Shown: piece after piece, positions 2,959-11,839 of the stretch
How the letters are laid out: each line of letters begins with the position of its first letter
How positions within the stretch are numbered: position 1 is the first letter of the stretch
IMG/VR virus record: IMGVR_UViG_3300032324_000909
Coordinates: 1 to 64,000 of that record
DNA: 64,000 bases
Source: a virus
Taxonomy: Duplodnaviria; Caudoviricetes
Reading direction: 5' to 3' (one strand)
Translations under genes and position numbers: made by a program
The notes under the pieces: generated by a model
Told to the model about the DNA's origin: nothing
The model's input: only the letters and a program-made list of their open reading frames with translations
The model's database searches: none

Positions 2959-3180
2959 TCCGAAATAGCGAAATACACCGATCTAAATAAAACCTAGGTC
3001 GGTTGTATGCTATAATAAAATATGATGGTAAGTATTGTAAATATAGGATTCTAGTTGTAATAAATAAATGATCGACATTATATACTACTTACTGGAAAAA
3101 ATATTCGTATTTACCATCTTTATTTTTGCTTTATACTTATTATATAAGGGATTAGTGGATGGCCCAAGAGACAGATAGTT

Positions 3181-3340: not shown

Positions 3341-5581
3341 ATGATACAAAACACCTCATACAACTCGCTCAACTCTGCTGGAATCAAGTCTGCCGTTAGC
3401 TTCGGCATCAAAGATACTGGTCTGGCGCATATCTTCAATGTTCTTCGGAACCAACTCTACACCGACAAGATCGGTGCTGTCGTGCGCGAATACTCTGCCA
3501 ACGCTTACGATGCCAATGTTGAAGCTGGCAAGCCTAATTGCCCTATTACTATCACCATGCCTAGCAAGCTGTCCAAGGTTTTCAAGATCAGGGATTTTGG
3601 TCGTGGCCTTTCAGAGCAGGACATTCAAGACATCTACTGCTTCTATGGTGAAAGCACGAAACGCCAGAGTAACGCATTTATCGGTCAACTTGGACTAGGT
3701 TCAAAGAGTGCGTTCGCCTATGGTGACAACTTTGTTATCAATTCCTTTACGGATGGCAAGGTTCGTTCTTACAATGCGTTTATTGATCCTAGCGGAATCG
3801 GTCAGATTGCCCTTCTGTCCACGCAGGACACCACAGATGAGAATGGTGTAGAGATCGTTATTCCAGTTAAGGGTGAGGATGCAAATTACTTCACGGGTGC
3901 TGTCAAGCGTTACCTCCGTTTCTTCAAGGTTCGCCCGAACATTGTAGGCGTGGACAAGGGTGAGTATGATAAGGTTTTTGCCAAGCCGATTTCCGTAGGT
4001 GCTGGCTGGGCTTTCTATGATAATCGTGAAGATCATCGCCCAATGGCAGTTATGGGCAACATCGCCTATCCGATTGACAGAAGTGCATTGAAGTTCATTT
4101 CTGGTAACGATGCAGATACGCAGATTAGTTATCTGTTCAATAGTGCTATCGTTATTGATTTTAACATTGGAGACTTGGATGTTGCGGCAAGCCGCGAGGG
4201 TCTGCAATACACCGATAGGACGATTGCGAACATCAAGAGCAAGGCAGGAGAGATTATCAAGACGCTTGTTACTGATATTCAAAAGCAGATCACGCAAAAC
4301 GCAAAGAGCGAGTATGCGGCGAAAAAGTTTATGTCCGAGATGGATAACCTTGTTAGCGGTTTCCATTATATCCGACAGATCGTTAAAAAGATTACCTTTA
4401 ACGGCAAGATTGTTACCTCTGATAATGTCGATACTACCCGAAAGAGTGCGGATCGTAGCTTGCGCTTTCATGTCATGCGCTATCGCAAGAATTGGAACGG
4501 CAATGTTCAGACTACCAACCTTAACGAGTTTGGGGCTAGGCATGACATTCAATTAGTTTTTAATGACCTTGGACATTACAACGCTGGTGCAAAGTATGGT
4601 CGTTACCTTGCTTCGCAGTCTGGTGATCGTGAGACTATTTATCTGTTCACGATTCAGCGTATGGAAGTTGTCAATGGCGCGGAAGTGCTGAAGGCTCTCA
4701 AGCCAGAGCAGTATGCGACCTACGCACAACAGATTGCGGAACTAAAAGAGGCAAATGGTTTCTGTGATGAGGATTTTATCTTCGCCTCGCAGATCAGCAT
4801 TCCCGTTAATGCAGTTGGAATAACCACCCCCAAATCAAAGCGTGTCGGTGCTTTGGTTCTTGATCCTAAAAATGCTAATTCTTGGAAGAATCGTAACGCT
4901 TGGAAGGATTGTGTTGTGGATGAGAAGAACGGCAACGGAATCTATGTCCAGATCAATAATTTCCATGCGGTCATAAATGGCGGCGATAAGATGGTAGGTA
5001 GTTTACTTCTTGATCTAGTTCAGCCTTTCAAGAACATTGATCCTGCAAACATCGTTGGCTTTACTAGCACACAACTCAAGAAAAAGATGGGTAGCGGATG
5101 GGTTCGCCTTGAGGACAAGATGCAAGAAGAGTTTGACGCTTTTATCTCTGCAAACAAAATCGACATTGATCTTTTGCTTGCAAATCGTTTAGGCAATACC
5201 ATGTTGCGCGACTCTTTCTTCTATCGTCTCCAAGACAAGAAGCATCAAGACTTGCTCATGTCACTTATCAAGAGCGACGATGATCGTGCAACTCTTCGTG
5301 ACCTGTTCGCTTGTGTTAATTCTCACAACAACGATGCAAACTCAAAGTCGAAAGAGCAAATTGCCCTTATGCTTATCAGTAAGATCGAAAGGCTTGACAT
5401 CGCCGCAGGAAACGCTTCGGGTAAAAACGAGAAGGCAGTTAAGATTGCAGAGGAAGTTGTGAATCGTGCGAAAGCCTTGCAGAAAAAGTTTCCTCTCCTC
5501 TCCTATATTGAGGAACGCAATATGCGCTGGGGCTTTAGTGCAGATTTTGCCAAGGTGCTTTCGGACTACATGAACGCATAA
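3341..5581 (+). CDS. rIIA: rIIA-like protein (GHKL/HATPase N-terminal domain)
   Basis: LYTDKIGAVVREYSANAYDA, IRDFGRGLS, STKRQSN, GQLGLGSKSAFAY; next to rIIB; promoter TTGTGC-N17-TATTAT upstream. Confidence 0.85.
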   Translation: MIQNTSYNSLNSAGIKSAVSFGIKDTGLAHIFNVLRNQLYTDKIGAVVREYSANAYDANVEAGKPNCPITITMPSKLSKVFKIRDFGRGLSEQDIQDIYCFYGESTKRQSNAFIGQLGLGSKSAFAYGDNFVINSFTDGKVRSYNAFIDPSGIGQIALLSTQDTTDENGVEIVIPVKGEDANYFTGAVKRYLRFFKVRPNIVGVDKGEYDKVFAKPISVGAGWAFYDNREDHRPMAVMGNIAYPIDRSALKFISGNDADTQISYLFNSAIVIDFNIGDLDVAASREGLQYTDRTIANIKSKAGEIIKTLVTDIQKQITQNAKSEYAAKKFMSEMDNLVSGFHYIRQIVKKITFNGKIVTSDNVDTTRKSADRSLRFHVMRYRKNWNGNVQTTNLNEFGARHDIQLVFNDLGHYNAGAKYGRYLASQSGDRETIYLFTIQRMEVVNGAEVLKALKPEQYATYAQQIAELKEANGFCDEDFIFASQISIPVNAVGITTPKSKRVGALVLDPKNANSWKNRNAWKDCVVDEKNGNGIYVQINNFHAVINGGDKMVGSLLLDLVQPFKNIDPANIVGFTSTQLKKKMGSGWVRLEDKMQEEFDAFISANKIDIDLLLANRLGNTMLRDSFFYRLQDKKHQDLLMSLIKSDDDRATLRDLFACVNSHNNDANSKSKEQIALMLISKIERLDIAAGNASGKNEKAVKIAEEVVNRAKALQKKFPLLSYIEERNMRWGFSADFAKVLSDYMNA

Positions 5582-10824: not shown

Positions 10825-11061
10825 TTAGAAAGTTAGAAAATCTTTTCCTTCAGTGGAATTGATTCGTTTTACCTTGTTTTGCATTTTGCGCCAAAGAATA
10901 TGTTTAACCAATTGTTTTTCTTGTGCGGCTATCTGTTCCTCCGAAGTGGCAAGTTTTGGAGAGTAACGGAACATCGGCGTCTTGTGTGACTTGTGATCCT
11001 GATAAACAAGGAAAGAAACTATTGTTACAGATAGAACGGCAAAGAATGGGAAGTATTTCAT
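10825..11061 (-). CDS. small membrane-anchored protein
   Basis: N-terminal hydrophobic helix. Confidence 0.55.
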   Translation of the reverse strand: MKYFPFFAVLSVTIVSFLVYQDHKSHKTPMFRYSPKLATSEEQIAAQEKQLVKHILWRKMQNKVKRINSTEGKDFLTF

Positions 11062-11089
11062 TGTTTTAATTTATTGGTTTTTAACTGAA

Positions 11090-11165
11090 TGGCACACGGC
11101 GAAAGAATCGAACTTTCCCAGTCGGTTTTGGAGACCAACTCGCCAGCCTTGGAACATTGCCGTAT
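11090..11165 (-). tRNA. tRNA-Trp(CCA)
   Basis: minus strand TTGGT-CTCCAAA-ACCGA, CCA end. Confidence 0.85.
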
Positions 11166-11170
11166 AAAAA

Positions 11171-11460
11171 TTGTCCCTGCCCCTCCGTCGAGGGCTATCC
11201 TCGCTAAAGGATTCGGCGTTGCAATCGCACAGGGTGTTGCTTTTCTTTATCTCTCTGCATTCACATCGGCTTCGGAATCCGACCTCCCACGACTTGAGAC
11301 GTGCGTTTGGTAGCATTACTAAAGAAATTGTTATGACTAGAAAATCTCATTCACTTTCGCGGAGATTTATCTTATAGGCTACACGTTCCCTGTGCACTGG
11401 GATTCGCTATCACCTATCGCGGGAGTTCCTTTAGCTTTCGGAACTTGCGCCTAGTCAAGT
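11171..11460 (-). ncRNA. unidentified structured ncRNA between tRNA-Met and tRNA-Trp
   Basis: At least 6 local hairpins, two long-range helices, no convincing ORF. Confidence 0.6.
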
Positions 11461-11461
11461 C

Positions 11462-11533
11462 TGGCAGAGGTGGGAATCGAACCCACTACCTTCACGTTAT
11501 GAGCGTGACGAGATACCAGTTCTCTACTCTGCG
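11462..11533 (-). tRNA. tRNA-Met(CAU), initiator-like
   Basis: C1:C72 mismatch, A11-U24, loop CTCATAA; promoter TTGACG-N17-TATAGT upstream. Confidence 0.85.
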
Positions 11534-11839
11534 TCGAAATGTTCTGTTAAAGATCCTCCTAGATTGTGTTAGACACTGCTAGGTCAGTGCTTATTATTAC
11601 TATAAACTTATTTTCCCATAGCGTCAAACACTTTTTCAAAAAATCCAATTTACGAATGCCGTTTATTTCAAATAGGGGCGAGATTTACGAGCCATGTCCC
11701 CTTAAATAGTTTCCGATGCACTTATACCCATCCCTCATATCTGAAAAACTAACCCAAAAACTATATAACTAATTTGTGGGATTTATTAGTTTCTCACTTA
11801 TATAAGTATAACACAACTTGGATAGCTTGTCAACCCCAG

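Follow-up and report, generated by a model that had tools for sequence, protein, structure and literature searches.

We found that the spacer between the tRNA-Met and tRNA-Trp genes of a tailed phage holds three separately folded RNA modules on the minus strand, and that the central one is a twister ribozyme, a newly recognised representative of an established class, here set in a previously undescribed organisation of a tRNA operon. The DNA that we analysed, called the window here, comprises 64,000 nucleotides (positions 1 to 64,000 of IMG/VR record IMGVR_UViG_3300032324_000909); the full virus record is 140.5 kb long, is complete and carries direct terminal repeats. The spacer is 296 nt long (11166–11461) and lies within a run of minus-strand genes. 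We consider it probable that its transcript contains three independent domains (module A, the twister and module C), that the twister cuts itself between A and C, and that the tRNAs are freed by host enzymes. A preliminary description of this DNA had noted structure in the spacer; comparison with relatives indicates that this structure is real and belongs to the minus strand, but that it is a composite of three folded modules.

The phage has genes for a large terminase and an RIIA-like protein. Among deposited phages, a megablast search with 25 kb turned up none closely related, and when the locus was compared by blastn with 50,697 phage records, the tRNAs alone gave matches. The relatives' loci discussed below, which carry L-numbers (L004, L005, L012 and so on), were collected from viral contigs. 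Modules A, twister and C each occur once in the phage genome, and none of the three open reading frames overlapping the spacer matched Pfam or PHROG. A consensus scan placed a putative sigma-70-like promoter of the transcription unit (TTGACG, 17 nt, TATAGT; 10 of 12 positions matching) at 11599–11627 on the minus strand. On the same strand, an inverted repeat at 11574–11589 forms a 5′ leader hairpin that is kept in relatives. The leader sequence is also found upstream of the twisters in L177, L173 and L020, and in L177 both promoter and leader are as in the window and stand directly before the twister. Between two promoters, at 11648–11715, we noticed by eye two copies of an element with the form ATTTACG, 13–14 nt, AAATAG, which an automated repeat search did not return; L173 and L177 have three or four copies. 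These could be protein-binding sites.

Both flanking tRNA genes, on the minus strand, were identified by ARAGORN. The tRNA-Met gene (CAU anticodon; 11462–11533) scored 59.4 bits with the Rfam tRNA model. By our own reading it has a C1–C72 mismatch, A73 and no encoded CCA, and the Rfam alignment marks its first acceptor pair as non-standard; the same type of tRNA-Met precedes the non-coding arrays of L010 and L019. The tRNA-Trp gene (CCA anticodon; 11090–11165), which is conserved in L005, is unusual in its D arm and encodes the CCA end. It lies under the Rfam tRNA cut-off, and its sole Rfam match is a 27-bit one to tRNA-Sec.

The minus strand of the region folded with an energy of −87.7 kcal/mol, compared with −77.1 ± 5.5 kcal/mol for shuffled sequences (z = −1.9), and the plus strand gave z = −0.9. 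Folding energy alone is modest to weak evidence for structure. The minimum-energy fold of the region consisted of three separate closed domains.

The Rfam scan that the preliminary description had called for reported tRNAs only at gathering thresholds. When the threshold was relaxed to E ≤ 10 over 10900–11700, the scan returned a match to twister-P1 (RF03160) at 11322–11247, which covered the full model length and scored 23.6 bits (E = 0.018) against a gathering cut-off of 67.2 bits. The same model matched L005 (25.8 bits) and L004 (21.9 bits). These scores are low because P3 is missing, P5 is inserted and the pseudoknot positions depart from the consensus. The idea that the spacer holds a variant of a known family was thus right for its central third, in a family that had not been considered. 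Of the flanks, neither A nor C matched any Rfam model at E ≤ 10.

The ribozyme occupies 11242–11327 on the minus strand. Its helices P1 (11320–11327 with 11242–11249), P2 (11312–11315 with 11256–11259) and P4, the last with loop L4 (11288–11303), follow the canonical twister order, and an optional P5 hairpin lies at 11265–11284. Two hairpins noted earlier, at 11266–11282 and 11288–11303, correspond to P5 and to P4 with L4, and relatives support both on the minus strand. The conserved core expected of a twister is present, namely the U-A step, the general-base G, AA in L4 and the A-rich joiner. In the rice twister, cleavage occurs between U6 and A7 and G45 is the general base (PMC6154101). In the window copy, the U-A step and the leading G of the GAGAG segment (11251–11255) align with these positions, which places the predicted cut at U11318/A11317 and the general base at G11255. 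The whole order of elements is that of type-P1 twisters (Roth et al. 2014; RF03160; PMC6154101), from P1 through the U-A-A loop, P2, L2, P4 with its 10-nt loop, the A-rich joiner and the P2 3′ strand to the GAGNG segment and the P1 3′ strand, and the general-base G and cleavage-site A are shared. P3 and P5 are both optional in the family; P3 is found in 78% of twisters and P5 in 1% (PMC6154101), whereas the window copy lacks the common P3 and carries the rare P5.

Both twister pseudoknots can form in the window copy. L4 is a partner in each, pairing with L1 in T1 and with L2 in T2 (PMC6154101). In T1, L4 contributes CUC and the 3′ segment GAG, in place of the CCC/GGG of the Rfam consensus; in T2, the first base of L2 is A instead of the consensus G and a U in L4 replaces the consensus C, which gives AC/GU rather than GC/GC. 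Because the changes are matched on the two strands, T1 and T2 both keep pairing, and these compensations are independent evidence for the assignment because the covariance model does not score pseudoknots. Among 19 distinct twisters, 100% of the cells in T1 and T2 were paired and the sequences were invariant within the subfamily, because our search patterns fixed L4; the support for T1 and T2 is the comparison with the Rfam consensus only. This double pseudoknot inside the twister is the genuine one in the spacer and had no place in the preliminary description.

Two pattern scans of viral contigs yielded 18 distinct full-length twister copies, and a model (R2) built from 11 copies gave 25 matches, 19 of them distinct. 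Across these 19 relatives, all nine P1 pairs, three of four P4 pairs and one P2 pair had changed on both sides; P4, for example, reads CAC/GUG, CCG/CGG, CUG/CAG, ACG/CGU or AGA/UCU, among others. The covariation score was 0.321, compared with 0.092 in shuffles (0 of 500 reached the observed value). All five measures that we used were above the shuffles: four were reached by none of the 500, and the count of pairs changed on both sides by 5 of 500. Slid controls were all far lower. The pair-count alignments for A, the twister and C were each fitted to their own models, which favours the proposed pairs. MAFFT misaligned the P3 and P5 variants of the twister, and the model alignment mishandles P3-containing copies; P1, P2 and P4 were also tallied by regular expression. 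In the 18 copies parsed in this way, U11318–A11317, G11255 and the CAAG of L4 were invariant. The base before the scissile A is C in one copy (L019) and A in another (L120).

One alternative is that the twister-like module is a catalytically dead relic with a structural role, and that host RNases process the transcript at its A/U-rich linkers. The low Rfam score is consistent with this, as are a U-U at the fourth P2 pair, a G-A at the P1 pair next to the cleavage site and the common A/U-rich form of the linkers between modules. However, the core nucleotides are kept across 19 distinct copies on unrelated contigs and the stems covary, as expected under selection on catalysis. P1 has been reported to be dispensable for cleavage (PMC6154101), and the same L4 variant occurs with good P1 stems in metagenome-assembled genomes classified as Lachnospiraceae and as the marine bacterium TMED88. 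We therefore regard a dead relic as very unlikely.

Many phage contigs contain the L4 variant, as do several metagenome-assembled genomes, of which at least three are bacterial. P3-bearing members of the subfamily likewise go unreported at the Rfam gathering threshold, which indicates that the cut-off shuts out the whole variant and not just copies of the window type. The L4-variant twister is thus a widespread subtype that the Rfam threshold misses. As a separate observation, the 5-kb viral contig L013 contains three twister-like elements (2495–2554, 3097–3152 and 4510–4576). One exceeds the Rfam Twister-P5 cut-off (55 bits), and two are weak R2 matches (17.7 and 21.9 bits), one of which shows a matched change in P2.

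Module A, the first of the two flanking folds, is a four-way-junction RNA of about 126 nt at 11332–11457 on the minus strand. It is closed by a 7-bp stem, P1 (11451–11457 with 11334–11340), from which arms P2, P3 and P4 extend, and P4 is capped by a GAAA loop. P1 had been described before as a long-range helix, and six of its seven pairs had changed on both sides among relatives; the hairpins seen at 11425–11444 and 11342–11368 are P2 and the GAAA-capped P4, both likewise supported by relatives on the minus strand. A pattern taken from the conserved internal loop of A, and therefore fixing the P3 internal loop, identified 20 viral loci, and a model of A (R1) matched 21 copies in phage contigs at 69–149 bits. 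In the model alignment of these 21 copies, 97.8% of cells were paired and 17 of 36 pairs had changed on both sides. No measure was reached by any of 500 shuffles, and slid controls gave at most four pairs changed on both sides. The exact core pattern of A was absent from all 185,579 species genomes scanned. The first modules of L004, L010, L015 and L008 resemble A and were undetected by R1, so we treated them as a separate family.

Copies of A occur in three genomic contexts. In the window and L005, A directly follows tRNA-Met. In L012, L017, L023, L030 and others, it opens non-coding arrays whose last elements are a twister and a terminator, and a conserved promoter-like sequence precedes it. 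In L029, L034, L035, L039, L040, L042 and L031, it occupies intergenic positions some 49 nt ahead of the start codons of small, unrelated open reading frames, suggesting a function in processing or at the 5′ ends of mRNAs. The reading frames beside these copies, and those beside C, gave no functional clue. The P3c loop of A (11391–11398, minus strand) carries the palindrome GUGCAC in the window, and by lineage the loop is GUGCAC, GGCC or GUAUAC, each self-complementary. A different palindrome in each lineage suggests loop–loop pairing between two copies of A, so that A may self-associate through this loop.

Module C is a second four-way-junction RNA, of about 64 nt, at 11173–11236 on the minus strand. 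It consists of P1 (11230–11234 with 11175–11179) and three arms: Pa (11216–11228), whose loop carries the palindrome UUGCAA, Pb (11199–11210) and Pc (11181–11194), which has a GACG loop. The hairpins previously placed at 11197–11212 and 11179–11195 are Pb and Pc, and both helices are upheld by relatives on this strand. A model of C (R3) finds seven copies from about four lineages (the window, L005, L004, L020, L025/L120, L173 and L177), in which 106 of 106 cells were paired. Changes on both sides had affected six pairs, located in Pa, Pb and Pc; P1, the junction nucleotides and the GACG hairpin were invariant. MAFFT misaligned the arms of C. A pattern for C was too loose for metagenomes, giving at least about 120 chance matches, and among the matches listed there was one true copy, identical to that of L025. 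Two further patterns applied to viral contigs added only L173 and L177, which indicates that C is a small family.

Several candidate identities for the flanking modules were considered and rejected. A and C share their junction topology with a tRNA cloverleaf and have neither a T-loop nor a CCA end. Inspection by eye found that C lacks the CUGANGA and GAAA core of a hammerhead, and searches for hammerhead, hatchet, pistol, twister-sister and hairpin ribozymes gave no match at E ≤ 10 in the window or at E ≤ 5 in L005 and L004. A 5-nt match between the A P2 loop and the C Pb loop is at about the level expected by chance.

C lies downstream of a twister in all seven copies, including all three that were found independently by C-only patterns (L025/L120, L173 and L177). 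This raises the alternative that C is coupled to the twister, either as a ligand or protein sensor that switches cleavage or as a second self-cleaving ribozyme, with A perhaps a new ribozyme as well. In L173 and L177, C P1 begins 1–2 nt after the 3′ strand of twister P1, so coaxial stacking would be possible, and the invariant junction nucleotides and GACG hairpin of C are further points in its favour. In addition, new ribozyme classes have reportedly been discovered adjoining twisters and hammerheads (Weinberg et al. 2015). Against this, the gap between the two modules is 7 nt in the window and is filled by an extra hairpin module in L005, L020 and L120; a gap that varies in this way argues that no rigid communication helix is conserved. 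Moreover, C matched no Rfam ribozyme or riboswitch at E ≤ 10. We consider such coupling unlikely.

The arrangement of modules in relatives bears directly on whether the spacer encodes one RNA or several. L005 is 97–99% identical to the window in A and the twister core, and carries a 220-nt module between A and the twister and a 90-nt module before C. L012, L017 and L023 have A, the 220-nt module, a twister and a terminator, without C. Conversely, L177 has the promoter and leader of the window followed by a twister, C and a terminator, without A; L173 and L020 are arranged similarly (leader, twister, C), and no A lies upstream of C in L177, L173, L020 or L120. This shuffling indicates that A, the twister and C are independent units. 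The stand-alone leader–twister–C genes indicate that twister–C is the ancestral unit; in the window, tRNA-Met and A are inserted ahead of it, and tRNA-Trp stands behind.

The preliminary description had instead seen a single RNA of about 290 nt, in which two long-range helices cross and may form a pseudoknot; in one reading of this the spacer would be a new large class of RNA released whole by tRNA processing. The 8-bp complementarity between 11227–11234 and 11388–11395 is indeed perfect, and CAGGG-type segments in A, the D module and C make alternative pairings with the 5′ strand of C conceivable. The complementarity is kept in L005, but this relative is nearly identical to the window and hence uninformative on the helix. 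Other copies of A carry GGCC or GUAUAC loops at this place with no C nearby, and where the loop is GUGCAC, in L033 and L041, the 220-nt module follows rather than C. C, in turn, exists without A. The two halves of the helix do not co-occur in other genomes, and its formation would disrupt three supported local helices (A P3c, C P1 and C Pa). The homologs thus supported the helices of A, the twister and C, including the closing stem of A, but not the second long-range helix, and with it the crossing pseudoknot falls away. Given also the 220-nt and 90-nt inserts at module borders and the insertion, deletion and shuffling of modules among relatives, we judge a single large RNA to be highly improbable.

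We also noted further modules in these arrays, all joined by similar A/U-rich linkers. The ~220-nt module, which precedes the twister and follows A or another first module, is missing from the window and present in L005 (876–1098) and most relatives, among them L004, L008, L010, L012, L015, L017, L019 and L023; it contains long-range complementary segments and had no Rfam match at E ≤ 5. The ~90-nt module lies between twister and C (L005, 1172–1263; L020, 9121–9210), and includes a hairpin with GCAGGGAAC in its loop; this further CAGGG segment might compete for the 5′ strand of C. Some arrays also have, after the first module and before the 220-nt one, a module of ~100 nt that is closed by GAUUACUG/CAGUAAUC (L004, 3440–3545; L017, 1024–1130). 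Related lake-phage contigs encode a tmRNA (111 bits) and group I introns (78–86 bits) within a few kilobases of twister arrays (L015, 9154–9600; L008, 5756–5988; L012, 3301–3525).

These observations are consistent with the following order of events, in which three independent domains are processed from one transcript. Transcription would proceed from the promoter through the leader, tRNA-Met, module A, the twister and module C to tRNA-Trp, and the twister would cleave itself co-transcriptionally between U11318 and A11317. The upstream piece, tRNA-Met with A, would then end in a 2′,3′-cyclic phosphate, and the downstream piece, the twister core with C, would start with a 5′-hydroxyl. Thereafter, host RNase P would cut the 5′ end of tRNA-Trp, and 3′ trimming would take place after tRNA-Met. 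The expected products are two small RNAs that may be stable, A (~140–150 nt) and twister–C (~150 nt). The earlier proposal of a new non-coding RNA released by tRNA processing is therefore plausible at the outer ends, but for the internal cut, self-cleavage is the most likely route. Family searches of the phage detected neither RtcB nor an Rnl2-type ligase; in the Rnl1 search, the control itself had no match anywhere.

As to what the flanking modules do, our best guess is that A and C are structural RNAs that self-associate or bind protein, and one option is that C regulates the twister or is a new ribozyme. We give some credence, although we doubt it, to a scheme in which twister–C is a two-domain gene, C represents a new twister-tied class that is either a cleavage-gating sensor or a ribozyme, and A self-dimerises by a kissing loop.

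Self-cleaving RNAs are known beside phage tRNAs. Theta ribozymes, which are minimal HDV-like ribozymes, adjoin phage tRNAs, cut about 1–5 nt from the tRNA 3′ end (Kienbeck et al. 2024, PMC10879173) and have been proposed to stand in for host RNases, or to help them, in processing (PMC10879173). The predicted ribozyme in the window is similar in being a small self-cleaving RNA in the tRNA region of a tailed phage. However, it belongs to another class, and Rfam found no HDV-family match in the region at E ≤ 10. Its predicted cut, 144 nt downstream of tRNA-Met and some 150 nt upstream of tRNA-Trp, would separate two non-coding RNA modules rather than trim a tRNA. Known twisters, for their part, differ in setting from this one, which has a folded RNA on either side and forms part of a phage tRNA operon.

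The preliminary description had also pointed to GOLLD and ROOL, large RNAs of lake-derived phages that adjoin tRNA genes and multimerise by loop–loop contacts (Rfam; cryo-EM, PMC12286853). The window shares the lake-phage origin and the tRNA neighbours, and the palindromic loop of A hints at similar self-association. The likeness does not extend to size or architecture, as GOLLD and ROOL measure 580–800 nt whereas the modules of the window measure 64–126 nt and recombine independently. The GOLLD, ROOL, RNase P and tmRNA models gave no match over 10900–11700 at gathering thresholds or at E ≤ 10, and ARAGORN found no tmRNA in the window. In phage T4, species 1 and 2 (rnaC and rnaD) are stable structured RNAs of 120–140 nt that are co-transcribed with the phage tRNAs, and we know of no ribozyme in that cluster. 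A and twister–C would be of a similar type; no sequence similarity to the T4 RNAs was detected by blastn among 50,697 phage records. For the folds of A and C, and for the order tRNA, A, twister, C, tRNA, we found no Rfam match and no published description.

To our knowledge, the natural role of twister ribozymes is still largely unknown. A twister at a defined place in a transcript of tRNAs and non-coding RNAs, with clear predicted products, makes such a role testable. The variant also exposes a gap in annotation, since a twister with compensated pseudoknots escapes the Rfam cut-off, and it is flanked by two four-way-junction folds outside Rfam, one of which, C, always accompanies a twister. 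The other, A, occurs across lake phages in three genomic contexts with lineage-specific palindromes, which fits recent findings of self-assembly among small phage-associated RNAs.
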